A DNA stretch of 64,000 nt from a virus (taxonomy: Duplodnaviria > Heunggongvirae > Uroviricota > Caudoviricetes). Both the position numbers and the translations under genes were made by a program. The notes under the pieces are model-generated. The model did not search any database. It saw only the letters and a program-made list of their open reading frames with translations, and was not told the origin of the DNA. Location of the stretch: IMG/VR virus record IMGVR_UViG_3300007735_000926, positions 133,683 to 197,682 of that record, one strand, 5' to 3'. This document shows, one piece after another, positions 7,624 to 57,341 of this stretch. Every line of letters begins with the position of its first letter. The first letter of the stretch is position 1.

Positions 7624-7705
7624 TAGCGTTGACAGGACTCGAACCTGCATGCTGTTAAGCGACTGATTTTGAGTCAGTTGTGAATACCAATTCCACCACA
7701 ACGCC
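7624..7705 (-). tRNA. tRNA-Leu (anticodon CAA), type II with long variable arm
   Basis: Hand fold: acceptor GGCGTTG/CAACGCT, D stem GTGG/TCAC, anticodon loop CTCAAAA, variable arm, T arm GCAGG-TTCGAGT-CCTGT. Confidence 0.7.
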
Positions 7706-7715
7706 GTTTTGAGAG

Positions 7716-7789
7716 TTGTCCAGAGGGGACTCGAACCCCTGACCCGACCCTTATAAAGAATCCGCTCTAACCAACTGAGCTACTGGACG
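7716..7789 (-). tRNA. tRNA, anticodon loop TTTATAA (apparent UAU, Ile reading AUA); C1-A72 mismatch
   Basis: Cloverleaf: D arm GCTC-AGTTGGTTA-GAGC, anticodon stem GATTC/GGGTC, T arm AGGGG-TTCGAGT-CCCCT. Confidence 0.6.
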
Positions 7790-7856
7790 TTTGAATTTTA
7801 CTGTAGTTTTTATCCGATCTTTTCTTCCACCAGAGATTTACAATTAGGGGTAAGGG

Positions 7857-7945
7857 TAAGAGCGGTGGGATTCGAACCCACAACCGTTCTGGACGGATTT
7901 GACCGATTATGAGTCGGCTGGTTTAACCATTCACCTCACACTCTT
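7857..7945 (-). tRNA. type II (long variable arm) tRNA with CAU anticodon loop CTCATAA; unusual combination
   Basis: 89 nt; 3-bp D stem with long D loop, anticodon stem GCCGA/TCGGT, variable arm hairpin CCGT-CCAGAA-ACGG, T arm GTGGG-TTCGAAT-CCCAC. Confidence 0.5.
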
Positions 7946-7960
7946 ATGAAAATTAAAGTG

Positions 7961-8045
7961 TGGCCACATCGGGACTCGAACCCGAACGCCCGAAGGGGCA
8001 GCAGATTTTAAATCTGCGGTGTCTACCAAGTTCCACCACATGGCC
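7961..8045 (-). tRNA. tRNA-Leu (anticodon UAA), type II
   Basis: Anticodon stem GCAGA/TCTGC with loop TTTAAAA, variable arm GCCC-CTTC-GGGC, T arm TCGGG-TTCGAGT-CCCGA. Confidence 0.65.
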
Positions 8046-20893: not shown

Positions 20894-22687
20894 TTAGTTT
20901 TTAAAAAGGTTGAGGATGGTGTCCTTTTGGAGATTGGAAGGTGTCAGATCAACATCACAATCCTCTGGAGAATCGACAATGATGGCACCGCAAAATTCCA
21001 GAAGATCATCCACTCGGAAACAATTCTTCCAGCGTTGAATCAATGCTTTGCGCATGATATCGTTGTTGCCACCAGATTTCGACACCTGAGAAGAACCAGA
21101 CGAAAAGTTAAGAACAATCGCTGCGTTATCTTTTCCGTGTTTGGTAATCATACCAACAACTGTTTGCTTTTGAATAGTCTCAGTTTGAGTTGTGAACCAG
21201 ACTTTATTCGGGTTCATCATGTATGATTTATCAATATTTGATCCCTTTCCAATGATGATATTGAAAACAGATCCTTTGGAATTACCATTGAAAACGTTAT
21301 TCAAAATCAAATAGTCATCGTCGGCTTTCGCCACTCTGATATACTCAGTGGCACCATTTCGAGCATCGGTCATATCACCAGAAAACATGACATTTCCCTC
21401 GTAGGCTGAATATCTTGAATTCCATCCAACCTTACTATCGGCAATAGAGGACAAATCCAAGTCACGCGCACCACCAGAATTTTCCCAATAGACTCCCATA
21501 GCAATAGGATCGGAAGTGAGGAACATACTACCCATTGGAATGTTACCAACAAACATCTTTTCAGATGTTGGGAGAGCGTAATGAACACCCTCGGGAATAT
21601 AAATTTTCTTACCTTTCAGATTTGCTCCGAATTTTTGAGAAATGATATCTTGGAGAATTACGATTTTCCGATGGAACCATTTAGTGTTCAGTTCCTTCTT
21701 CTTGACCCAAGACTTACCATTTCGAATGTTATAAACCTTGCAATCAGAATTGATCGATTGTGTCAAAAATTGAAGACACTTCGCCAATTGGAAGAAGTTC
21801 GCATTTTTAACCAGATTGTCCTTTTGATCGAGCAATTCAGTCACCTCACAATAACCAATGTTATTGAGGATATTGCGTTCCATAGGAACATGGAGTTTCT
21901 TACTGAGACGGGAAATCTTATTGATAGTCTTGGAACAATCACGACCAACAGATTTCTTGAAAGCTAGGAAAATTGGTTTGAAACGATTGAACACTTCTGC
22001 CAAACATTCGACACTGCAATTTGTCAATGCCTTTTCGACATATTTCCGCTGCTGTGAAGTCATCGCTTTAATTTTCTTATAAGTATCAGCATTCTTGATG
22101 ATAAGAGTCTCACCAGTTGCGAGATAAATAAGATATCTGACAAACTCAGATGGATCAGACGGAACGATTCCCATCCGATTACAGATGATCATCAATGCTT
22201 CTTTGTTCTTGATGTTCTCCTTACCAGTGAATTCATAATCCAAATCTGAAAGAACTTCGATGATATCATCGAGGGTATCCTTCTTCAAGGCTACACCAGA
22301 CTTAAGCAGATCAAGTGCCTTTTCGATAATCTCTTCCTTTTTCAGACCACGAATAACCAAAAATCTAGTTTCCACCTGTGGGATATCCAAATCTTCATTC
22401 GGTGTATACACAAAAGAGGATTGGAAATTCGTGCCATAAGTGGTGAGATAATGCAAAATCTGATGCATCCACAGTTCCTCTCTGGAGGAATTCTTGATCA
22501 CACTCCAAGATTTATGAAAAGTCTCGTTCAATTGCTTGCTGTCGAGCCTCTTGGATTTGAGAAACTTTTTGATATCATTCAAAGCATAAGAAGCTGATGG
22601 TTCAATGACAGTGCCATATTCTGGCAGAATCTTATATTCACCTTTTGATTCAGCGACAACGCAGTTAAACAGTTCAAGTGTTTTCAT
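20894..22687 (-). CDS. large hypothetical protein (~598 aa)
   Basis: Track ORF 20894-22786; likely ATG at 22685-22687 (MKTLELFNCVV); no recognisable domain; upstream is a repeat array rather than the standard motif. Confidence 0.45.
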   Translation of the reverse strand: MKTLELFNCVVAESKGEYKILPEYGTVIEPSASYALNDIKKFLKSKRLDSKQLNETFHKSWSVIKNSSREELWMHQILHYLTTYGTNFQSSFVYTPNEDLDIPQVETRFLVIRGLKKEEIIEKALDLLKSGVALKKDTLDDIIEVLSDLDYEFTGKENIKNKEALMIICNRMGIVPSDPSEFVRYLIYLATGETLIIKNADTYKKIKAMTSQQRKYVEKALTNCSVECLAEVFNRFKPIFLAFKKSVGRDCSKTINKISRLSKKLHVPMERNILNNIGYCEVTELLDQKDNLVKNANFFQLAKCLQFLTQSINSDCKVYNIRNGKSWVKKKELNTKWFHRKIVILQDIISQKFGANLKGKKIYIPEGVHYALPTSEKMFVGNIPMGSMFLTSDPIAMGVYWENSGGARDLDLSSIADSKVGWNSRYSAYEGNVMFSGDMTDARNGATEYIRVAKADDDYLILNNVFNGNSKGSVFNIIIGKGSNIDKSYMMNPNKVWFTTQTETIQKQTVVGMITKHGKDNAAIVLNFSSGSSQVSKSGGNNDIMRKALIQRWKNCFRVDDLLEFCGAIIVDSPEDCDVDLTPSNLQKDTILNLFKN

Positions 22688-22742
22688 AATGGGTAATGTG
22701 TATTTTTTAAAAAGTGATGGACGGGAAGTAAAATTTCCAATA

Positions 22743-22902
22743 ATAATTAGGAACTTCCTTTGTCCAAAAGTTGGAAAGTTGTTCAAACGGAAAGTATTTT
22801 CTTAGTATATTAAAACTTGTTAGGAACTTTCTTTGTTTGAGATTTATCTAGCGGAGAGTATTTTCTTATCATATAAAATATTAGGAACTCTCTTTGCTTG
22901 GA
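22743..22902. repeat. three imperfect direct repeats (~65-73 bp period), core TTAGGAACTYYCTTTG plus GAGTATTTTCTTAKYATAT; iteron-like regulatory array
   Basis: TTAGGAACTTCCTTTG (22746), TTAGGAACTTTCTTTG (22818), TTAGGAACTCTCTTTG (22881); GTATTTTCTTAGTATATTAAAA and GTATTTTCTTATCATATAAAAT. Confidence 0.5.
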
Positions 22903-42824: not shown

Positions 42825-43172
42825 TTATTCGCTAACTTGAAGCTCAAGAAAACGAACATTTTCTTCAGGCAAATCTTTAAAATATTTCAATGCTCTCTTT
42901 TCGAGATTTTTGAAAAGATTTTCAATTTCATTTTGAGTATTGGGGCAGATCGGTAAAAAATAATCTTTGCTCAAAGCTCTGGCAACTGCAATCTTGATGC
43001 CTAATTTTTTATCGAAACGATCAATCGGATTACAGAGTGAATACCCGTAGTAAACCCCATTTTCTTCTCTAACAGCAACTACAATTCCTCGTGGATTATT
43101 CTTTCGATCTCTGATGAATTGCTTAATTATATTTTTATTATCAGTGTTCATATTTTTAAAAATTACTTTCAA
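42825..43172 (-). CDS. hypothetical protein; paralog of 23926-24186
   Basis: Shared PRGIVV...LGIKIAVARA core. Confidence 0.45.
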   Translation of the reverse strand: MKVIFKNMNTDNKNIIKQFIRDRKNNPRGIVVAVREENGVYYGYSLCNPIDRFDKKLGIKIAVARALSKDYFLPICPNTQNEIENLFKNLEKRALKYFKDLPEENVRFLELQVSE

Positions 43173-43863
43173 TTAGTCTATGCTCTTTGACCTGCTCAAT
43201 GGCAAGAATCGTGGAATAACATCCGTTCATTTCAACCCAATGATAGGAATGGAAGTGACCACAGTAATGCATTTTAGCTTTTGAAAGCTTGATCAATTCA
43301 TCGTGATCAATGCGCTCTTTGTAGCAATCATTCCATAGCTCAGGATCTTTTCCACACCATCCAGCTAGTCCTTCTTTATCAAAAGGACCATTCCAAGTTG
43401 GGGCGCTATGGGTTACGAGAACATCACATTCTGTAATCAATTCAGGTTTGAGAACAAATGTCTCATCGTGCCAATAACTCTTACCGGGAACACGATACAA
43501 ACGATCAATGCTGATGGCACCACCAACAAAAAGGAATTTCTCTCCATTGAGTTCTTTGGTGGTATAATCTGGAAGCAATTCAAAATTACTCATTTTGATA
43601 CGAGAGTCGCCATTGAAATACGCGGGATCATCGTGGTTCCCCCGGATCGACATGAAGTGAATATTCTTTTTGGTAAAGTAATCATTCAAATCACCACAAG
43701 CAATCATTTCTCCATTCTGAGTATTTTTAAAACCGATACCGAGATCACCAACGCAAATCAGGTAGCAATTCTCAATACCCTGATGATGGATGAGATTCTT
43801 CAACCGACCAAATGCGCCGTGTATGTCTCCTATCAAAAGGACTGGTTTAATATAGTTGCTCAT
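43156..43863 (-). CDS. calcineurin-like metallophosphoesterase
   Basis: GDIHG, GDLGIG, RGNHD, THSAP, GHFH motifs. Confidence 0.55.
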   Translation of the reverse strand: MSNYIKPVLLIGDIHGAFGRLKNLIHHQGIENCYLICVGDLGIGFKNTQNGEMIACGDLNDYFTKKNIHFMSIRGNHDDPAYFNGDSRIKMSNFELLPDYTTKELNGEKFLFVGGAISIDRLYRVPGKSYWHDETFVLKPELITECDVLVTHSAPTWNGPFDKEGLAGWCGKDPELWNDCYKERIDHDELIKLSKAKMHYCGHFHSYHWVEMNGCYSTILAIEQVKEHRLIESNF

Positions 43864-43878
43864 TGTGTTATTTCAAAT

Positions 43879-44376
43879 TTATAGATCAATCTCGAATGGT
43901 GTTTCGAATATGTTACCAACGACTTCTGCTTTTGTCAAGTCGAAATGATCATTGTCTTCCATTTTCGCTCTGCCGACAGGGTTGAGCTTGGTTTCTCCAA
44001 TTTTAACAAATTTGCTGCCGTTGATAGAATGGTAAATATACGGTCTTAAGAAAGAACCATTGTAGAAGTCAAAGACATAAAGGGTTGACATGTAGCAATC
44101 TTCTGCCAATTTGATTGGTTCAGAAAAACGAACAATGTCACCTTCATAAATCTCTACACCATCCTTGCCTTTTAGACCTGTGTATTGCTGAAGAATGAAT
44201 CTATTGCCCAAGTCTTCTAATATAATATCCCCACCATAACTACCATCGTCGTTTCGAGTTCTCTCCCAAAAGAAAAGCTGTTTATGGGAGGTAGAAAAGA
44301 ATGGATCTCTATTTGTCCATTCAGAAAATTCTTCGTATTCAGTATCCCAAGTTCTAAATTTAATTTCTCTACTCAT
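43879..44376 (-). CDS. YopX-family protein (1 of 4 tandem paralogs)
   Basis: MSREIKFRTWD ... QQYTGLKGKDGVEIYEGDIV. Confidence 0.55.
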   Translation of the reverse strand: MSREIKFRTWDTEYEEFSEWTNRDPFFSTSHKQLFFWERTRNDDGSYGGDIILEDLGNRFILQQYTGLKGKDGVEIYEGDIVRFSEPIKLAEDCYMSTLYVFDFYNGSFLRPYIYHSINGSKFVKIGETKLNPVGRAKMEDNDHFDLTKAEVVGNIFETPFEIDL

Positions 44377-44381
44377 GATTC

Positions 44382-44585
44382 TTAAATTTCTTTAAATCCT
44401 AGCTCTTTAGCGATCCACGAAAGCTCTTCATCTTCTTCTAATGAAGAAATTAGAGCATTTATCAGTTTGATCGAAAAATCAGCATCTTGAACCTTTTTGT
44501 CTATATCGACAATGAATTCGATCAATTCTTGCTTTGAATTGCCTCTCACTAAATTATCTGTATTTAAATCAATAGTTATGTTCAT
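44382..44585 (-). CDS. hypothetical protein
   Basis: 67 aa. Confidence 0.35.
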   Translation of the reverse strand: MNITIDLNTDNLVRGNSKQELIEFIVDIDKKVQDADFSIKLINALISSLEEDEELSWIAKELGFKEI

Positions 44586-45019
44586 GTTAATTTACTTTGA
44601 TTGTTTGTTTCCCATTTCAACTCTAATAGTTCTGGATTTTCAAAGATATTACCAATTACTTTATAACCACTTGAGTCTGTATAATCGCCCAATGTTTCAA
44701 AAGAACCATCAGTTCGTTCGATCGAATCATGTTTAAAGAATCCAAATGCTGTGCTGCCATCTGCCACATAGGAAACTTCTTCAGGCTGGTTATGTTGATA
44801 AATCTCCAAAATATCTCCTTCGTAAATCTCTTTACCATTCTTGTCTTTTAGACCAGTGTATTGTTGATAAGTCAATCCATGTGGATGTTGCTTCCAGTAG
44901 AATGTATGTGGATGAATTTCACCAATACCATTTACATCGGTTTTCATTCTCCAGATGTATTTGTTAGTCACCCATTCTTTCTTTAGATTGTCCCAAATTC
45001 TAAATTTTATCTCTCTCAT
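44582..45019 (-). CDS. YopX-family protein
   Basis: MREIKFRIWD ... QQYTGLKDKNGKEIYEGDIL. Confidence 0.55.
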   Translation of the reverse strand: MREIKFRIWDNLKKEWVTNKYIWRMKTDVNGIGEIHPHTFYWKQHPHGLTYQQYTGLKDKNGKEIYEGDILEIYQHNQPEEVSYVADGSTAFGFFKHDSIERTDGSFETLGDYTDSSGYKVIGNIFENPELLELKWETNNQSKLT

Positions 45020-45262: not shown

Positions 45263-45477
45263 CAGTTTACTTTAATTGTTTGTTTGCCCATTTCAGCAAT
45301 CACTTGGCCATCACACAATAATCGGTGTTCACATCTATGGTTATAGTGAGCTTTTAACATGGACCATGCTCCTTCAGCAAAAGACTTTCTCATATAAGAG
45401 AATCCTACCATTTTACTCCATTTGTCAATAGGAGGTGCCATGTAAAATTCAATATCGTAATACTTTTGAGCTTTCAT
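45262..45477 (-). CDS. hypothetical protein
   Basis: 71 aa. Confidence 0.3.
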   Translation of the reverse strand: MKAQKYYDIEFYMAPPIDKWSKMVGFSYMRKSFAEGAWSMLKAHYNHRCEHRLLCDGQVIAEMGKQTIKVN

Positions 45478-45860
45478 TGATTTAGCAGTTCAGGATTTTC
45501 GAAGATGTTACCGTATACTATAGTCCGTGTTTTTACGATTCCCGAGGGGATCATATACATGCCCTCTTGGTTAGTAATTGTTTTAAAGATGAATGTGGCA
45601 TGCGGATCAGACCACTCAACTACATACATGATACCCATATCCATATGCAAGATATCACCTTCATATACGTCATTGCCTTCTTTATCTTTAAGCCCGGTGT
45701 ATTGTTGGATCACGAATCTACCATCTCCACAAATCTTTTGAGTGTCTAAATTCAAAACAATAGACAAAACATCATCATTTTTTTCTAAATGATGCACATT
45801 AGGGCTGTTGTATTGATACAGTTCTTTATCCCACACTCTGAATTTTATTTCTCTACCCAT
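45474..45860 (-). CDS. YopX-family protein
   Basis: MGREIKFRVWD ... QQYTGLKDKEGNDVYEGDIL. Confidence 0.55.
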   Translation of the reverse strand: MGREIKFRVWDKELYQYNSPNVHHLEKNDDVLSIVLNLDTQKICGDGRFVIQQYTGLKDKEGNDVYEGDILHMDMGIMYVVEWSDPHATFIFKTITNQEGMYMIPSGIVKTRTIVYGNIFENPELLNQ

Positions 45861-46207
45861 GATTCCATCAGTTCTGGATTTTCAAAGATGTTGCCGATTA
45901 CCTCTCCGTATAAACATGATCTATAAGTATCCATGAAATTTCCACCATATTTGCTGGTTAACATAAAAGAGCCGTATTGAAAATTAGCCTTTCCTAATGC
46001 CCCTTCATGTTCACCGTAGCCAACTTTCACAATATCTCCTTCGTAAATCTCCACACCGTTCTTGTCTTTTAGACCTGTGTATTGTAGCACCGTAAAATTT
46101 TCAGGAAATAGAAACTGTGGTAATTTATTCCAATTAAAAGGTCCAATGATACAATTAGTATCATTTTTATCATAAATTTTGAATTTAATTTCTCTCATAA
46201 TCGTCAC
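45845..46207 (-). CDS. YopX-family protein
   Basis: MREIKFKIYD ... LQYTGLKDKNGVEIYEGDIV. Confidence 0.55.
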   Translation of the reverse strand: MTIMREIKFKIYDKNDTNCIIGPFNWNKLPQFLFPENFTVLQYTGLKDKNGVEIYEGDIVKVGYGEHEGALGKANFQYGSFMLTSKYGGNFMDTYRSCLYGEVIGNIFENPELMESWVEK

Positions 46208-46551: not shown

Positions 46552-46752
46552 TTAACAAGTAACCTTTCGATTCAGATTTAAAGTAAATGGACTACAGCTT
46601 GGACACGGACAACTCAATGCATGAATACAATAGCTGCCGTCTGCTTTACGTCCAGTTCCATGACAGGCTGAACATGTTTTATGCAAGCATATCGGTCCTT
46701 GCTCATCAATTTTGCTTAGATCTATTGTGATTGTGTATGTCATGATTATCAA
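46552..46752 (-). CDS. Cys-rich small protein (zinc-ribbon-like)
   Basis: CLHKTCSACHGTGRKADGSYCIHALSCPCPSC. Confidence 0.35.
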   Translation of the reverse strand: MIIMTYTITIDLSKIDEQGPICLHKTCSACHGTGRKADGSYCIHALSCPCPSCSPFTLNLNRKVTC

Positions 46753-47212: not shown

Positions 47213-47731
47213 TCAGATTCTCCTGAAATCGGTGATAGTTCTCTCGTAAGGCTCGACCTGATGAATATCGTCCAACTCCAATTCTCTACCATTGTAGGAC
47301 TCGTAATAACCCGGAATCAACCAAAAAGTTTCATTGATATCATTCTGAGTAACAGACAATACCACGTAATGATCTGATCCATCTCCTTCACCTCCACCAT
47401 GTTTATAAAAACATTTAATAACCCAACCATCACCGAATTCAAGAGGAGTGTAATCAATTCCATACACACCCACTGTATATTTCAAATTCTTAAAATAATG
47501 CAAATTAGCAGAATTATCAGACATTTTAATGACTTCGATCAGGTTATAAGCAGAAGGATGCCAATCTTTGAACTTATCTTTTGCTTCAAGTTCAGCTTTG
47601 ATTTTTTTCTGCCTTTCGATTTCATCATTGATAGCCTTTTGTTGCTTCTTTTTAGCAATTTCAAGTTCTTTCAGTTGATTCTGAAGTGTTTCGATGGCAT
47701 CATCGATATTGATAGTAGCTTTAAGTTTCAT
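47213..47731 (-). CDS. coiled-coil + globular domain protein; paralog of 49202-49723
   Basis: Shared C-terminal YFKNL.Y...Y.ID....LEFGD.WVIKC.Y.HGGGEG.GS..YVVLSV.QN...ETFW..PG.YESYNG.E.ELD...QVEPY. Confidence 0.5.
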   Translation of the reverse strand: MKLKATINIDDAIETLQNQLKELEIAKKKQQKAINDEIERQKKIKAELEAKDKFKDWHPSAYNLIEVIKMSDNSANLHYFKNLKYTVGVYGIDYTPLEFGDGWVIKCFYKHGGGEGDGSDHYVVLSVTQNDINETFWLIPGYYESYNGRELELDDIHQVEPYERTITDFRRI

Positions 47732-47756
47732 ATTTTTAATTTATTTATTGGATTGA

Positions 47757-48512
47757 TTACGCGAAATACTTGCGACCATCAAGAATGATTTGTGCCGCCA
47801 GTTCTTCATCAAATTTATACTCTACTTCCGTATTGTCAATAGTCTTTTCTAGTTTTTGGAACTCTTCGTTCACAAAAGCTTCAAGCTGCTCTCTTGTATA
47901 TTTCTCAGGAACAGTTTTGATATCCATTAGAAAATTGTGATACTCTGGATCAAATTCTTTGACATTGACCATGTATCGACCATCTGTGAAAAATTCGATA
48001 CCCACTTTGCAAAGACGCAAAATTTGAACGAAATTCTTAGGGCTGAATCCATATTCAGTAACTGCCTTTTTACGCTTACCGCCAAGCTGTCCACTTCGTT
48101 CTCCAGTAGCCAGTTTAAGTTCGCTAAACACATAACCTTTGAGACTTTGCTTGAGAACAGAAGTTTCAATCAAATTGTATTTGTTATCACGAATAACATC
48201 AAAGTGTGGATGTTTGAAAACAAATGAACTTTCAGGAGCGAACAAAATTTCAAGAACTTGGGTATTGCTCTTTCGAAGCAGCTTGAGATACCTAGTCAAT
48301 TCGTAATAGGTAGCGTCAACATCTCCCGTTTGAACAATACTGTCAATCGTGTTTAGATTGGCAAGATACTTTGGATCGGTGGCCACGAAAAGTCCACGAT
48401 AATCAATATCGCTTGTAGGTGTATTAAGACCGTAGAGATTTGATCCGCCGACGATCTGAACGATAAGTTCACCCCCGCATTTTTTAAAAGTTTCGTGTTC
48501 AGTGATGTTCAT
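47757..48512 (-). CDS. predicted nucleotidyltransferase (pol-beta superfamily GS...DxD)
   Basis: IVGGSNLYGLNTPTSDIDYRGLFV. Confidence 0.5.
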   Translation of the reverse strand: MNITEHETFKKCGGELIVQIVGGSNLYGLNTPTSDIDYRGLFVATDPKYLANLNTIDSIVQTGDVDATYYELTRYLKLLRKSNTQVLEILFAPESSFVFKHPHFDVIRDNKYNLIETSVLKQSLKGYVFSELKLATGERSGQLGGKRKKAVTEYGFSPKNFVQILRLCKVGIEFFTDGRYMVNVKEFDPEYHNFLMDIKTVPEKYTREQLEAFVNEEFQKLEKTIDNTEVEYKFDEELAAQIILDGRKYFA

Positions 48513-48532
48513 TGTGGTGCTTGTATTGTATG

Positions 48533-49198
48533 CTAGTTTTTATAAATGACACTGGTGAATCCATTTTTTGCAGCTTCTTCTGGACTGAGAGTGGCATACC
48601 ACGATCTTTTTTTACAAAGAGTTGCTCGGGTTCCCGTATTTTGACAAATGGTTGATGATAAATATTCAGCAAAGCTGACCATTCCAGCAACTTTAGCATC
48701 ACCACCTTCGTAGTAAAAGCGAAGTTGTCCAAACTTTTCTTTGATTTGATGAATGGTTACAGGAGCGACAGGTACAGTATCCCATTTGTAGTATGGATAA
48801 AATATTTTTTGAATCTTTCGTAATTTTTCAACGATTGCAAATTCCCGTTTGTATTTTTCGTTCAGAGCAGCACGAGCAGACACAGAGAGTAGGAGTGTCT
48901 TATATTCAGGCTTGTTGTAGGGATTGTATTTCCTATACAAAGGGTCGTATATTTTACTAAAAATATTTTTGTAAAACCATTGTTTTACAAGACGCAATGG
49001 TTTACGCTTTTCAATATAGACCAATTGCAAGCAACAATATGTGCTTATTGCTTTGCAAAGGTCTTTTACCAAATTCTCCCAACCAACAGGACACCAAATA
49101 CCACAAGACGGTGCAGTTGGGTTACCATCGCTATCTTTTGGGAACAGCGTTGGATACGTTTTGATCAGATATTGATCAAATGGAATTTGTGAGTTCAT
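48533..49198 (-). CDS. hypothetical protein
   Basis: 221 aa; motif-variant upstream. Confidence 0.4.
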   Translation of the reverse strand: MNSQIPFDQYLIKTYPTLFPKDSDGNPTAPSCGIWCPVGWENLVKDLCKAISTYCCLQLVYIEKRKPLRLVKQWFYKNIFSKIYDPLYRKYNPYNKPEYKTLLLSVSARAALNEKYKREFAIVEKLRKIQKIFYPYYKWDTVPVAPVTIHQIKEKFGQLRFYYEGGDAKVAGMVSFAEYLSSTICQNTGTRATLCKKRSWYATLSPEEAAKNGFTSVIYKN

Positions 49199-49201
49199 TG
49201 C

Positions 49202-49723
49202 TTAAATCTTGCGGTAAGCAGTCACCATCTTCTGGTAAGGTTCAACCTGATACAGCGAATCCAATTCAAACTCTGAGCCATTGTAGGATTCATACCAACC
49301 CGGCACCATCCAAAATGTTTCGTTGGCTCCGTTTTGAGAAACAGACAACACAACATAACGTTCTGATCCAGAACCTTCGCCTCCACCATGAGAATAATGG
49401 CATTTAATGACCCAATTATCTCCGAATTCAAGAGAAGTGCCATCATCAATATCATAAATACTTGTTTCATATGGCAAATTCTTGAAATACTTCAAGTTTT
49501 CAGTTTCGTTAGCCATTTGAATAACATCGATGATGTTTGACTTGGTAGGAATCCATCCGTTAAACTTGGTCTGTAATTCTAGTTCTGCCTTGAGCTTTTC
49601 CTGACGAGCAATTTCATCATTAATAGTGTCTACTAATTCCTTCTTAGCAACCTCAATTTCAGCAAGTTGCTTCTTGAGATTTGTGATGTTGTTGTCGATG
49701 ATTTGTGGAGTATCAATTTTCAT
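49202..49723 (-). CDS. paralog of 47213-47731
   Basis: See 47213-47731. Confidence 0.5.
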   Translation of the reverse strand: MKIDTPQIIDNNITNLKKQLAEIEVAKKELVDTINDEIARQEKLKAELELQTKFNGWIPTKSNIIDVIQMANETENLKYFKNLPYETSIYDIDDGTSLEFGDNWVIKCHYSHGGGEGSGSERYVVLSVSQNGANETFWMVPGWYESYNGSEFELDSLYQVEPYQKMVTAYRKI

Positions 49724-50495
49724 ATTTTCTTAGTTTGTTTTGAGATTCAGCTTGTTTGAATTTTTGGATATATTCTTTATCTTTGCAACCTGTCAGATGT
49801 TGGAAATTATCCAAAATGAAGAATTTAAACCATCCAGATGACATCGTAGTTGCAAGCTTTTTTAGACTCTGACCATAAGCGGCAGCGTGTCCACATGTAA
49901 AGTCCGATGGAATATGATAACGCTCAAGAGCAGTTACCCACACTTCTTCTTTTACTAAGAGTATTTTATCATCGAATCGCAATTTGTCAAATCCTGATTG
50001 AGAGCAATTGACACCTTCAACGATCAGCTTTTCATAAAGCGGTTTGTCGTAAACTGCAACAGCTTCGTGAATGTCATCGTGAACATATTTGCGAGTTACT
50101 GCATCTTCAAAGAATGTAGTGCTGGTTTTGTTCTTGAGACTTGCCCACTTTTTACCATGCACGCCAATCCAGTCTTTGACAAGACTGTAATACAATGGCT
50201 TGTCAACTACACAACCTTTATTTTTAAGGAACAAAATATCAGACATTGTTTTCTGCCAATGAATGTCCCAGCCTGCATGACTCATTTTGAGCGTCAACAG
50301 AAAGTTAGGATCAATGTAGATGTTGCTCTTGTTGTTATCAAGAATGTATTGAAAGCTATCAACCCAATAATGCTGAACTTCCTTTGTCATATGAGAAGTT
50401 TTTGAAATAACATCAAGGTCTTTCGGCGTTCTCTTGAAATCCGGGAACCATGCTGACATTGCATGCGATCCGATGATTAGTGTTTCTCTAGGCAT
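49713..50495 (-). CDS. predicted minimal nucleotidyltransferase (GS...DLD motif)
   Basis: IIGSHAMSAWFPDFKRTPKDLDVISK. Confidence 0.4.
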   Translation of the reverse strand: MPRETLIIGSHAMSAWFPDFKRTPKDLDVISKTSHMTKEVQHYWVDSFQYILDNNKSNIYIDPNFLLTLKMSHAGWDIHWQKTMSDILFLKNKGCVVDKPLYYSLVKDWIGVHGKKWASLKNKTSTTFFEDAVTRKYVHDDIHEAVAVYDKPLYEKLIVEGVNCSQSGFDKLRFDDKILLVKEEVWVTALERYHIPSDFTCGHAAAYGQSLKKLATTMSSGWFKFFILDNFQHLTGCKDKEYIQKFKQAESQNKLRKYEN

Positions 50496-51086: not shown

Positions 51087-51143
51087 AAAAAAGGGGTTGC
51101 GAATATAATACTCACAACCCCTTAATTTGTCAAGCTTTATTGT

Positions 51144-52433
51144 TTACTTGGTCTGCACAGTCGGAACCTTCATTGCATCAAGGTATCCGTTCTGCTTGAG
51201 AAGCAGAAGATTGATAAGCTCGCTCTGAGTAGCGGAACCACCCTTACCATCAGCACCGTTAGAACCGCTGATGACGATCTGTGGAACATTCACCTTAGCA
51301 AGAGCAGAGGCAACACCAATGGCGGTTTCACGTTGGGTTTCAAGAGTTACCTTGTCCTTTTCGGTGATGGCACCAGCCTGTGCAATACGATCCTTTTCAG
51401 CTTCTGCCAGAATTCGAATCTTTTCAGCGTTTTCAGTCGCAGCTTCCTTGTCAAGCTTTGCAACAGACAGCTTCATCGCAGCTTCAGTTTCAGCAGTTTC
51501 CTTTTGCTTCAATGCAACCGCAAGAATCTTGGCAGCTTCAGTTTCAGCAACTTCCTTTTCCTTCATCGCAGTGATGACAGCCTGTGCCTTTTCAAGGTTA
51601 GACTTGGCTTCGGTTTCAGCCTTCTCACGAAGACCCTTCTCGATAACCATCAGCTTTTGCTGAACTTCGCCTTCACGTTGCGCCTTTGCACTTTCAGCCT
51701 GAAGGAATGCATCCTTCTTGGTATTGAACTGCTTGCGAGTCTGTTCATCATACTCAGTTTCAGTAATCGAGAACTGAGTAACAGTTACACCATATTGAGC
51801 AAGTGGACTCTTCTGTGAAATGACAGGTTTGCCAGTCTTAGCGTCTCGAACAATTTCAGTTGCAGTTACACGAACCTTATTGCCCTTTTCGTCAAGCTGA
51901 TCCAACTCTCGTTCAACACGACGCATTTCATACAGACCATCGTTAAGCTGATCAAGAACAACAGTATTGAACTCACTCTTACGAGACGATTGGTTTTCTG
52001 ATGCACTCATAAGAGGTCCAGAAGCCTTGATCACGTTTGAAAGGTGTGCCCAAACAGCAGTCTTGATGTTGGCGATGTTGCCACTAAACTGACGATGGAA
52101 TTCACGCTTCTGATCAACAGTGGTTGGAAGAGCAATACGAAGCGTAGCATCGATATCAGCGGTTCCACCATCATTGAACGTCACACGGGTAGACTCATCA
52201 GTTGGCGATTCCTTAGTGGCCTTCTTGTAAAAGCCGAGAGGAAGATTTCGTGGATATTCAGTCACCTTGGGGAAGAATGCGAAATAGACACCAGCGGAAT
52301 CTTTAATTTCAACTTCACCGTTGATGTATTGAACAGCTTGCCATTCAGTATCATCAACCTTGTGAATAAGGTTGGAAGATAGGGTGGCGAGGATAGCAAC
52401 GCCAATTACAGTTAGAATTAGTTTCAGTTTCAT
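51144..52433 (-). CDS. SPFH/band-7 (stomatin/prohibitin/flotillin-like) membrane protein with long C-terminal coiled coil
   Basis: N-terminal TM helix, SPFH-like core, then EA-rich heptad segment KEKEVAETEAAKILAVALKQKETAETEAAMKL. Confidence 0.5.
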   Translation of the reverse strand: MKLKLILTVIGVAILATLSSNLIHKVDDTEWQAVQYINGEVEIKDSAGVYFAFFPKVTEYPRNLPLGFYKKATKESPTDESTRVTFNDGGTADIDATLRIALPTTVDQKREFHRQFSGNIANIKTAVWAHLSNVIKASGPLMSASENQSSRKSEFNTVVLDQLNDGLYEMRRVERELDQLDEKGNKVRVTATEIVRDAKTGKPVISQKSPLAQYGVTVTQFSITETEYDEQTRKQFNTKKDAFLQAESAKAQREGEVQQKLMVIEKGLREKAETEAKSNLEKAQAVITAMKEKEVAETEAAKILAVALKQKETAETEAAMKLSVAKLDKEAATENAEKIRILAEAEKDRIAQAGAITEKDKVTLETQRETAIGVASALAKVNVPQIVISGSNGADGKGGSATQSELINLLLLKQNGYLDAMKVPTVQTK

Positions 52434-52750: not shown

Positions 52751-53290
52751 TTAATTAGCGGTTCTTTCAATGAGAAACTCTTTAACATCTTCCTCAAAAG
52801 GATCTTCGGGAAAATTAACACCGTAATAATCATCAATTTTCAGATAATTTGTGTCCTGAGTTTTTTGAATTCCGATGAATTGAATCTTACCTTCATTTTG
52901 GCGTCGTGGCAGATTGTCGATCAGCACATTGTTTGGATTGGCATATTCATGGGGAATAATGGAACCATATCTACCACCATACGCTGTTGAAACCCAAACC
53001 ATACTAGCTTCTTGATCTTCTCTAGCGAAGATGTCATTAGGATCAAATCCCCAGCCAGCAAGCTCATTAACCTTTTCAGCATAATCTCTTGTTGCTGTGG
53101 TCAGAATATGGACATTTTCCTCTCCAACCAGTTCACGGCTGAATCTGATCAGTTCATGACTGCATGGACGAATGATGGTGTAGTATGTATAACTATCACC
53201 AAGAGAAAATGCTACATGATCTTGCTTTGGATCATCTAAAAGCGTGTGGATAAGAGTTTCGTCAATATCCCAAAAAATTTTATTTATCAT
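52751..53290 (-). CDS. HAD-superfamily phosphatase, FCP1/NIF-like
   Basis: IFWDIDETLIHT (DxDxT) motif; start taken at internal ATG (MINKIFWD). Confidence 0.5.
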   Translation of the reverse strand: MINKIFWDIDETLIHTLLDDPKQDHVAFSLGDSYTYYTIIRPCSHELIRFSRELVGEENVHILTTATRDYAEKVNELAGWGFDPNDIFAREDQEASMVWVSTAYGGRYGSIIPHEYANPNNVLIDNLPRRQNEGKIQFIGIQKTQDTNYLKIDDYYGVNFPEDPFEEDVKEFLIERTAN

Positions 53291-53300
53291 GTTTTTATTT

Positions 53301-53741
53301 TTACGATTTTGTGTGCCAGAGTTGCTCAAGAACTTCTTTGATGTTCTTTGCTCCCCATTGGTTTGCGCTATGGACGTAGCAGATTGGAGTCTTGATCCTA
53401 CCACCCTCGTTCCATTTGTCAATCAAATATTCAGCACAGTGTTTACCAGTTGGAATTTTTAAATTACCATATTCAACCACACCAGTCAAACTTGTAACTG
53501 AAAAATAATGATCCATATGTTCCGTATGTAAATCATGATCAAAGCTGATCACATCAGGAATTCCATTCTTTTCAATATACGCTACAAACTCTGCATAAGA
53601 GCGAACAATATCCCAATTGCCATTTGGAATGCCTGAAATATTCTCAAGTGATTTACCAGAAATAATTTGCTTCTTATCGTCTCGTCTTGGGTAAATCCAA
53701 GCGTCTTTCGGTTTTCTTATATCATCGAGGAATACGTTCAT
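53301..53741 (-). CDS. hypothetical protein
   Basis: 146 aa. Confidence 0.4.
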   Translation of the reverse strand: MNVFLDDIRKPKDAWIYPRRDDKKQIISGKSLENISGIPNGNWDIVRSYAEFVAYIEKNGIPDVISFDHDLHTEHMDHYFSVTSLTGVVEYGNLKIPTGKHCAEYLIDKWNEGGRIKTPICYVHSANQWGAKNIKEVLEQLWHTKS

Positions 53742-56601: not shown

Positions 56602-56922
56602 TTATCGTTCAATCAATCCTTCTTCAGTTACTTCTAAAATTGTATATGCTTTTGACCAATCATCAGACATCGTTTTGTGGCGATTTTGAGCTTCCTCTAA
56701 TGTGTCGTAATATTGTATTTTATCTGCTGTCCTGATTTTCTCTACGCCATTTCGAACCACCTTTGACTCTAGCATAGGGAAGCCAGATGTTAAATATCCT
56801 TCGCCATGCTTCTTTTCAAGAAGATATTCATGTGGATTTAAAAATGTCAAACAAAACTTGCCAACTGGATGTTCAATAGTTGGTCGATATTTTCGGTTGG
56901 TATGTTCAATATAGATTTTCAT
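56602..56922 (-). CDS. hypothetical protein
   Basis: 106 aa. Confidence 0.4.
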   Translation of the reverse strand: MKIYIEHTNRKYRPTIEHPVGKFCLTFLNPHEYLLEKKHGEGYLTSGFPMLESKVVRNGVEKIRTADKIQYYDTLEEAQNRHKTMSDDWSKAYTILEVTEEGLIER

Positions 56923-57341
56923 AGTAATGGCAAGTGATCAGTAAGTCCGATAAACTTTTCGTCCCAATTTGGGCCGATTGATAGCGCAGTGAATGTTTTC
57001 ACTCCATTGAATTCGGTCGCTCCATTGTCCTCAACAATATACGAGATCAATCCATTGTCAAGAGCTTTTTGATGAAGTTCATGAAGTTCTTCTTCGCTGT
57101 TGACATAGACACAAATCTTACGAAATGAGTTTTCGAGCCAATGAGTAATTTCCTCAGCTTGTTCGGTGTTGTAGTGTCGAGTCTCAAAAACACCCAATGT
57201 GGTTGAATAGTCATGCGTGTAGCTGGCCCGCATACCTTTGGTAAGAAACGCCATACTTGCATGGGCAACTTGACTACAATATTTTCCAGTTCTAAGATTT
57301 GGAAATTTTCTGACTACAATAACTTGTTTAGTGTTTTTCAT
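56919..57341 (-). CDS. peptidyl-tRNA hydrolase, PTH2 family
   Basis: QVIVVRKFPNLRTGKYCSQVAHASMAF and TFTALSIGP align with PTH2 VVRxDLxMGKGKxAAQCSHAA / TVLGIGP. Confidence 0.6.
   Translation of the reverse strand: MKNTKQVIVVRKFPNLRTGKYCSQVAHASMAFLTKGMRASYTHDYSTTLGVFETRHYNTEQAEEITHWLENSFRKICVYVNSEEELHELHQKALDNGLISYIVEDNGATEFNGVKTFTALSIGPNWDEKFIGLTDHLPLL

Follow-up and report, generated by a model that had tools for sequence, protein, structure and literature searches.

Host defences that damage or block the 3' ends and anticodon loops of tRNAs are a major anti-phage strategy. They include MenT/AbiEii, toxSAS, HEPN nucleases, PrrC/RloC, PARIS and retrons. Known phage countermeasures comprise tRNA genes, RNA ligases, polynucleotide kinase with phosphatases, RlaP and CCA enzymes. 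Here we describe a region of a phage genome in which two nucleotidyltransferases (NTases), named NTase1 and NTase2, are encoded together with two copies of a small protein, A and A'. The region covers positions 47213-50495 of a 64,000-nucleotide stretch (hereafter the window) of IMG/VR record IMGVR_UViG_3300007735_000926 (positions 133,683 to 197,682 of that record). A and A' are extra copies of an acidic partner that trails a DUF7275-family NTase, here NTase2, in almost every carrier phage. The finding has its place among minimal NTases with a cognate small partner, within RNA conflict and repair.

Both NTase families in this region have been catalogued before. RlaP, the family of NTase1, was reportedly defined by Burroughs and Aravind in 2016 (NAR 44:8525). 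Its name stands for 'RNA ligase-associating Pol-beta', and T4 NrdC.11 is a member (PMC12776372). RlaP enzymes require an hG[GS] motif and three strictly conserved catalytic Asp residues, and the Pseudomonas proteins PfRlaP and PaRlaP extend damaged RNA 3'-OH ends by one or two nucleoside monophosphates (NMPs), and over-trimmed tRNA depends on them to recover its function (PMC12776372). In large phages, RlaP is frequently found together with RNA ligases (PMC7824862). DUF7275 and DUF7277, the families of NTase2, are catalogued but uncharacterised. In the searchable literature, which did not cover the 2016 study that defined RlaP, we found no mention of DUF7275 or DUF7277 and no description of the near-obligate linkage of the A partner, its variable copy number or its fusions.

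All five open reading frames (ORFs) of the region lie exactly where a preliminary description of this DNA had placed them. They are all on the minus strand, so their order of expression is NTase2, A', unk, NTase1 and A. NTase2 (49713-50495) is a basic protein of 260 aa (isoelectric point, pI, 8.65) that joins a DUF7277 minimal NTase core to a DUF7275 helical domain, and it opens the conserved module. The proximal partner copy, A' (49202-49723), is an acidic protein of 173 aa (pI 4.65) in which a coiled coil at the N-terminus precedes a C-terminal beta domain. Its start codon lies 11 nt within the NTase2 reading frame (AAATATGAAAATTGA), and the remaining intergenic gaps across the five-gene run are 3-25 nt. 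Next come unk (48533-49198), a basic protein of 221 aa (pI 9.5) with a Cys-rich N-terminus, and NTase1 (47757-48512), a predicted RNA 3'-end nucleotidyltransferase of the RlaP family (PF10127) with 251 aa. The distal partner copy, A (47213-47731), has 172 aa and an acidic C-terminal domain. Upstream of NTase2, at 51091-51133 on the minus strand, a strong intrinsic-terminator hairpin (15-bp stem, then TTTTAT) overlaps a promoter-like site (TTGACA-17-TATTAT, 11/12 positions matched). This site is probably the upstream boundary of the transcription unit that holds the module, and no terminator of similar strength was found from 51091 down to 47.2 kb.

The organising principle of the region is a conserved pair, a DUF7275 NTase followed by A in one to four copies. 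Synteny was assessed in 59 distinct IMG/VR loci (L numbers below), retrieved via DUF7275 patterns alone and with at least 1 kb on each side. It is near-universal: same-strand, downstream A-domain genes are present in 56 of the 59 loci, or in 55 if the match must span the core motif region. Around these loci, 111-116 A-domain copies lie downstream of the NTase gene, one lies upstream and none is on the opposite strand. Copy number varies, with one copy in about 21 loci, two in 12-14, three in 17 and four in 3-5. The reverse search gave the same picture, as DUF7275 lies directly upstream on the same strand in all 19 IMG/VR loci retrieved via A-family peptide patterns. Neighbouring genes of the module often overlap at their stop and start codons by 4 or 11 nt; the window, L003, L005 and L120 have the 11-nt form.

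The two proteins are also found as one. Single ORFs of 360-424 aa in which A is fused to the C-terminus of the DUF7275 NTase occur in L010 (1396-2583), L066 (898-2049), L090 (273-1355), L102 (3698-4972) and L116 (669-1838), and in L102 the fusion is followed by an additional free-standing A-domain gene. One such fusion, P0126 (395 aa), surfaced in the NTase2 search and the A-profile search alike. The two partners show charge complementarity: A-domain proteins are uniformly acidic (median pI 4.6; 99% below 5.5), and DUF7275 proteins are mostly basic (median pI 8.3).

Cultured phages share this gene order: in Gordonia phage OneUp, gp10 is followed by gp11 and gp12, and in Streptomyces phage Blueeyedbeauty, gp205 is followed by gp206 and gp207. 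A scan of 185,579 species-representative bacterial genomes yielded just five loci, in actinobacterial prophage-like regions or contigs of metagenome-assembled genomes, and thus no sign of a cellular version. The prophage-like loci with the module belong to Mycobacterium, Nocardia and Mycolicibacterium. The A domain is nearly phage-restricted.

Judged on their sequences, A and A' are true paralogues. Full-length identity between them is 57% (BLASTP E 3e-67), a similarity far beyond shared composition, and the common coiled coil and C-terminal GGGEGxGS domain noted earlier agree with the AlphaFold2 (AF2) model of A'. This model (predicted local distance difference test score, pLDDT, 88) has a long helix at residues 6-52, two short helices and a six-stranded beta domain, in which the GGGEGSGSE stretch is a hairpin loop of lower confidence. 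The signature of the A domain is GGxEG...PGxYxSYxG. Its most conserved position is Ser146 (probability 0.92 in a 150-sequence profile), followed by Tyr144 (0.83).

The domain is defined here; Pfam holds no model for it. Searches of A and A' against Pfam, NCBIfam and PADLOC returned nothing beyond coiled-coil noise, to which the matches of A to GapS6a, LmuB and LiaH (NCBIfam/PADLOC), all far under cut-offs, were assigned. The C-terminal 70 residues of A and A' match PHROG 8206 and 18295, both entries of unknown function, and a sequence search of the A family against the PDB gave no significant match. Close A homologues number 16 among 5.8 billion clustered proteins, and every one is metagenomic. 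The best structural match to the A' model in BFVD is OneUp gp11.

At the DNA level, duplication is confined to the A genes. The preliminary description had proposed a duplication across 47.2-50.5 kb, but the sole direct repeat longer than 34 nt within 46.5-51.5 kb is 215 nt long, 75% identical and spaced by 1989 nt. It links the C-terminal halves of the two genes, at 47242-47456 in A and 49231-49445 in A'. The duplication itself is old. The copy that follows DUF7275 and the copy that follows RlaP form separate orthologous clades, each common to other phages, which indicates that both copies have been retained. Window A, for example, shares 72-73% identity with the L003 second copy and the L001 copy, and 57-58% with A'.

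The position of the second copy varies among phages. It adjoins RlaP in the window and in L003/L004, is absent from L005 and L011, and in the L001/L120 phage lies about 8 kb from the DUF7275-A pair and 4.6 kb past RlaP. A strict RlaP-A coupling was considered and ruled out, as A after RlaP may be missing (L005, L011) or distant (L001/L120). Given this variation, the arrangement in the window is best explained as an array of two partner copies interrupted by unk and RlaP, and not as a repeated unit of NTase plus A.

NTase2 is assigned to its families with high scores, matching Pfam DUF7275 at 162.9 bits (E 1e-47) and DUF7277 at 28.8 bits (E 2e-06), with cut-offs of 27. Both domains are matched by all 41 NTase2 homologues examined. 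NTase2 also matches PHROG 6944 and 2141, whose functions are unknown. Homologues occur in at least 733 deposited phage records, almost always under the label 'hypothetical protein'. Across the 41 homologues, G9, S10, D26 and D28 are invariant, as is a polar cluster in the helical domain (K82, D131, R135, H139, D140, H143, E183, E184, E191 and R192).

The AF2 model of NTase2 is confident (pLDDT 92), and its NTase fold is superposable on MenT structures. The nearest structures are MenT1, MenT4 and MenT3 (MenT/AbiEii-type) and aminoglycoside NTases. In sequence, NTase2 has T23-x-x-D26-x-D28, and candidates for the downstream Lys (motif III) and Asp (motif IV) of the MenT catalytic set are K70 (98% conserved), K82 (100%) and D86 (98%), whose K-to-D spacing resembles that of MenT. 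AbiEii hidden Markov models (HMMs) were the sole recurrent PADLOC match, a weak one (15 of 41 homologues, motif I only, best E 2.8e-4). PF08843 (DUF1814) was matched neither by NTase2 at E up to 1 nor by any of the 41 homologues at E up to 0.05. NTase2 did not match PF01909 (NTP_transf_2), and a sequence search against the PDB gave nothing significant. Because its fold neighbours are MenT proteins, its AbiEii matches are weak and PF08843 is never matched, NTase2 is a pol-beta-fold NTase distantly related to MenT/AbiEii that falls outside that family by sequence.

NTase1 is, by sequence criteria, a member of the RlaP family with the corresponding predicted activity. It scores 61.6 bits against Pfam RlaP PF10127 (cut-off 23; E 1.2e-16), with the aligned part covering residues 15-96, the N-terminal NTase core, and it matches phrog_388 'nucleotidyltransferase' at E 4e-32. 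In an alignment with divergent RlaP homologues from Cronobacter, Mycobacterium and Bacillus phages, G23, S24, D35, D37 and D66 are invariant. Homologues occur in 746 deposited phage records, and a sequence search against the PDB found no significant match. The earlier assignment of both enzymes to the pol-beta superfamily therefore holds, with conserved motifs in each. The preliminary description had named a missing carboxylate triad as grounds for refutation; for NTase1 the invariant D66 answers this point, and in NTase2 the strand-3 position is Q or E.

The gene between the two A copies, unk, is single in the window. Its product has the N-terminal motif CGIWCPVGW...LC and an invariant QIKEKFGxLRFY...GGD...FAE...C. 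The 23 homologues include proteins of 127-160 aa whose similarity is confined to the motif region, and unk had no match in Pfam, PHROG, NCBIfam, PADLOC or the PDB. It is syntenic in L003, L005, L011 and L120, and lies between A copies in this phage lineage only.

Genes of RNA repair are frequent neighbours of the module. For instance, an Rnl1-type ligase (RNA_lig_T4_1) directly follows the A array in L046, L065, L070, L079, L080 and L118, among them several unrelated viral contigs (L118, 2229-4728; L046, 3959-6517; L065, 7057-8598). An RNA ligase gene is also located 1.3 kb upstream in Blueeyedbeauty. In L005, a close relative of the window, the end of an RNA_ligase gene overlaps the RlaP start by 4 nt, 2 kb downstream of the module. 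Of 57 loci, 21 have tRNA genes, often entire arrays, no more than 4 kb from the module, and in OneUp a tRNA array begins 52 nt past gp12. These associations with tRNA and ligase genes are suggestive.

The window itself contains further genes of this kind, all on the minus strand. A PTH2 peptidyl-tRNA hydrolase is encoded at 56919-57341 (Pfam PF01981, E 1.9e-24), a cyclic-phosphate processing receiver (cREC_REC) domain protein at 53301-53741 (PF20274, E 7e-19) and a NIF/HAD-type phosphatase at 52751-53422 (PF03031, E 2.2e-07). The listed start of the NIF ORF, a TTG that makes it overlap the cREC gene by 120 nt, is probably over-called. On the other side, a calcineurin-like phosphoesterase (Metallophos; 43156-43863) neighbours the module. 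PTH2, cREC, HAD phosphatase and phosphoesterase classes are all included among phage components of RNA repair and ribosome rescue, and the cRec domain has been linked to RNA ligases (PMC7824862).

Other features of the window, also on the minus strand, were noted in passing. Four tRNA genes (Leu-CAA, Ile-TAT, Met-CAT and Leu-TAA) lie at 7624-8045; by eye, none appears to encode the 3' CCA, so post-transcriptional CCA addition would be needed. Four tandem paralogous YopX-domain genes (43879-44376, 44582-45019, 45474-45860 and 45845-46207; Pfam E 5e-15 to 3.5e-22) are present, and YopX arrays likewise flank the module in the metagenomic relatives L001, L003 and L005. An SPFH/Band_7 protein of 429 aa (51144-52433), whose C-terminal half is long, repetitive and rich in Ala, Glu and Lys, is kept at the equivalent upstream position in L003 and L005. 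A 66-aa protein (46552-46752) with several CxxC-type pairs (CLHKTCSACHGTG...CPCPSC) is probably a zinc-ribbon; its match to Anti-TRAP is sub-threshold. Searches of 47213-50495 as DNA and of A' by tblastn against 50,697 phage records gave zero matches, which indicates that the region has no close cultured relative. For a 630-aa ORF at 20894-22786, the top cultured-phage match, to the freshwater cyanomyovirus S-CRM01, reaches only 35% identity, again pointing to an uncultured large phage without a close cultured relative.

Taken as a whole, the region, with its two unrelated pol-beta-type NTases, reads as part of a block of RNA/tRNA-maintenance genes in a large uncultured phage. By analogy with characterised RlaP enzymes, NTase1 would mend damaged RNA 3'-OH ends by adding one or two nucleotides ahead of ligation. 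NTase2 would also act on RNA 3' ends, most likely those of tRNA, like its nearest structural relatives. The acidic A proteins would bind NTase2 directly as regulatory or specificity subunits, for example by filling its RNA-binding cleft. Such gating would make a toxin-like enzyme safe for the repair or maturation of phage tRNAs in the face of host tRNA-targeting defences. Together with RlaP, ligases and phosphoesterases, NTase2 and A would take care of tRNA maintenance in the infected cell. A regulated tRNA/RNA 3'-end NTase with A subunits, serving phage RNA repair, is the interpretation we lean towards, tentatively and at slightly less than an even chance.

The acidity of A bears on its role in this repair model. 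It speaks against an adaptor that binds RNA directly and in favour of A as inhibitor, nucleic-acid mimic or protein substrate; within the model, a gating role is therefore tentatively preferred. A bolder version would treat the GGxEG/PGxYxSYxG domain as a new family of dedicated partners, possibly mimics of the tRNA acceptor. Through one to four diversified regulators, these would gate or retarget a MenT-like 'domesticated toxin', either to repair and mature phage tRNA 3' ends or to selectively disable host tRNAs with those of the phage spared. We regard this elaboration as speculative and, taken in full, unlikely.

Several observations weigh against the repair model. In NTase2, no third catalytic carboxylate stands out: the strand-3 position is Q or E, and D62 is conserved in 88% and D86 in 98% of homologues. 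In T4-like phages, similarity is limited to the DUF7275 helical domain (query residues 63-259) of a protein about 320 aa long, which has a different and longer N-terminus and lacks a nearby A-domain gene; examples are phage VR7 ORF136c (L008, 4650-5615) and Acinetobacter phage AM101 orf062 (L009, 4653-5606), one of which is annotated 'putative nucleotidyltransferase'. The window and its closest relatives have no tRNA gene within 4 kb of the module, and about 40 kb separate the tRNA cluster of the window from it. A search of the window ORFs for relatives of the L005 RNA ligase, which did not extend to other ligase types, found none. The figures for tRNA and ligase proximity are raw counts from lineages that are not independent. 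The roles given to DUF7275 and the A domain are deduced from sequence, models and gene context, and the acidity of the partner would be equally expected of a specificity subunit, an inhibitor or a protein substrate.

An inhibitor is what the first alternative would make of A. Here, NTase2 would be a MenT/AbiEii-type toxin that blocks aminoacylation of host tRNAs by 3' extension, and the A proteins would be its antitoxins or inhibitors, in a toxin-antitoxin (TA) or host-takeover system. Such a system could serve host shut-off, superinfection exclusion or prophage-encoded defence, with nearby phage tRNAs escaping modification or replacing the modified host tRNAs. MenT toxins are indeed the nearest structures of NTase2, AbiEii HMMs match it weakly, and phage tRNA arrays often adjoin the module. 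The small acidic partner of a basic enzyme, the translational coupling and the fusions recall TA and fused-TA architectures, and the actinobacterial prophage-like loci would fit as well. However, AbiE and MenAT encode the antitoxin ahead of the toxin, the reverse of the order seen here. A bears no relation to AbiEi or MenA, and it would be unusual for a toxin to have one to four copies of its antitoxin. The adjacency of Rnl1 and RlaP and the PTH2/cREC/HAD block point towards repair and away from damage, and the module is common in large phages of lytic type. We therefore consider a toxin role for NTase2 doubtful, though it deserves to be kept in mind.

A protein substrate is what the second alternative proposes. 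MNT-HEPN pairs are minimal NTases with small cognate protein partners, sometimes fused. By analogy with these type VII systems, NTase2 could place an NMP on the near-invariant Ser or Tyr of PGxYxSYxG, and the A proteins would be effectors or decoys switched in this way. The top conservation of Ser146 and Tyr144 in the A domain and the resemblance of the NTase2-A architecture to MNT-HEPN pairs are in line with this idea. Nonetheless, A has a beta domain dissimilar to HEPN, no effector-like feature was found in it with Pfam, PADLOC or the PDB, and the Ser/Tyr conservation could be purely structural. Nucleotidylylation of A would also leave the RNA-ligase and tRNA context unexplained, and we rate it as distinctly improbable.

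The third alternative, a duplicated NTase-plus-A cassette for cyclic-nucleotide signalling or against cyclic-oligonucleotide-based anti-phage signalling (CBASS), as the preliminary description had suggested, is very hard to sustain: both NTases carry GS/DxD pol-beta signatures and each is followed by an A copy in the window, but the two enzymes belong to different families without sequence homology (best E 26), only A is duplicated at the DNA level, RlaP-A adjacency is not conserved (none in L005/L011, a 4.6 kb gap in L001), PADLOC gave no CD-NTase or CBASS match, the closest folds to the NTase2 model are MenT/AbiEii-type and aminoglycoside NTases, and there are no effector or receptor genes. 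Of the two roles put forward at that stage, signalling is not supported, and anti-defence in the form of RNA repair is plausible.

If the bolder version outlined above is right, a domesticated toxin with its own regulators would add to the struggle of phage and host over tRNA a two-component arm not described before. The DUF7275 family gains a concrete, testable hypothesis, as a distinct subgroup with an obligate, variable-copy acidic partner, fusions and proximity to Rnl1, RlaP and tRNA arrays. Carriers exist in culture, including OneUp (gp10-12), Blueeyedbeauty (gp205-207) and prophages of M. abscessus.

Compared with known systems, NTase1 is the simpler case. Like RlaP proteins such as T4 NrdC.11 and PfRlaP/PaRlaP, it passes the PF10127 gathering threshold, has the GS motif and three Asp residues, and aligns with phage 'nucleotidyltransferase' RlaP homologues across most of its length; it differs in that an A-domain paralogue follows it in the window. 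For NTase2 and A, the matching Pfam (DUF7275/DUF7277) and PHROG (6944, 2141, 8206 and 18295) entries state neither function nor linkage. From the tRNA NTase toxins of the MenT/AbiEii (DUF1814) group, NTase2 differs in lacking a PF08843 match and in having its partner downstream in 111 of 112 cases, a partner unrelated to AbiEi/MenA and present in one to four copies or fused. Its family is essentially limited to phages and prophages, where it lies among RNA-repair genes and not in host TA loci. From MNT-HEPN (type VII TA), it is set apart by the absence of PF01909 and by a partner with a beta domain instead of a helical HEPN. Class II CCA-adding enzymes and other phage RNA 3'-end repair NTases likewise differ from NTase2, which has no PolyA_pol/CCA sequence match, is much smaller and has a separate acidic partner. 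However, they resemble it as template-independent pol-beta NTases that, in large phages, are found beside tRNA genes, RNA ligases, phosphoesterases and PTH2 (reviewed in PMC7824862).

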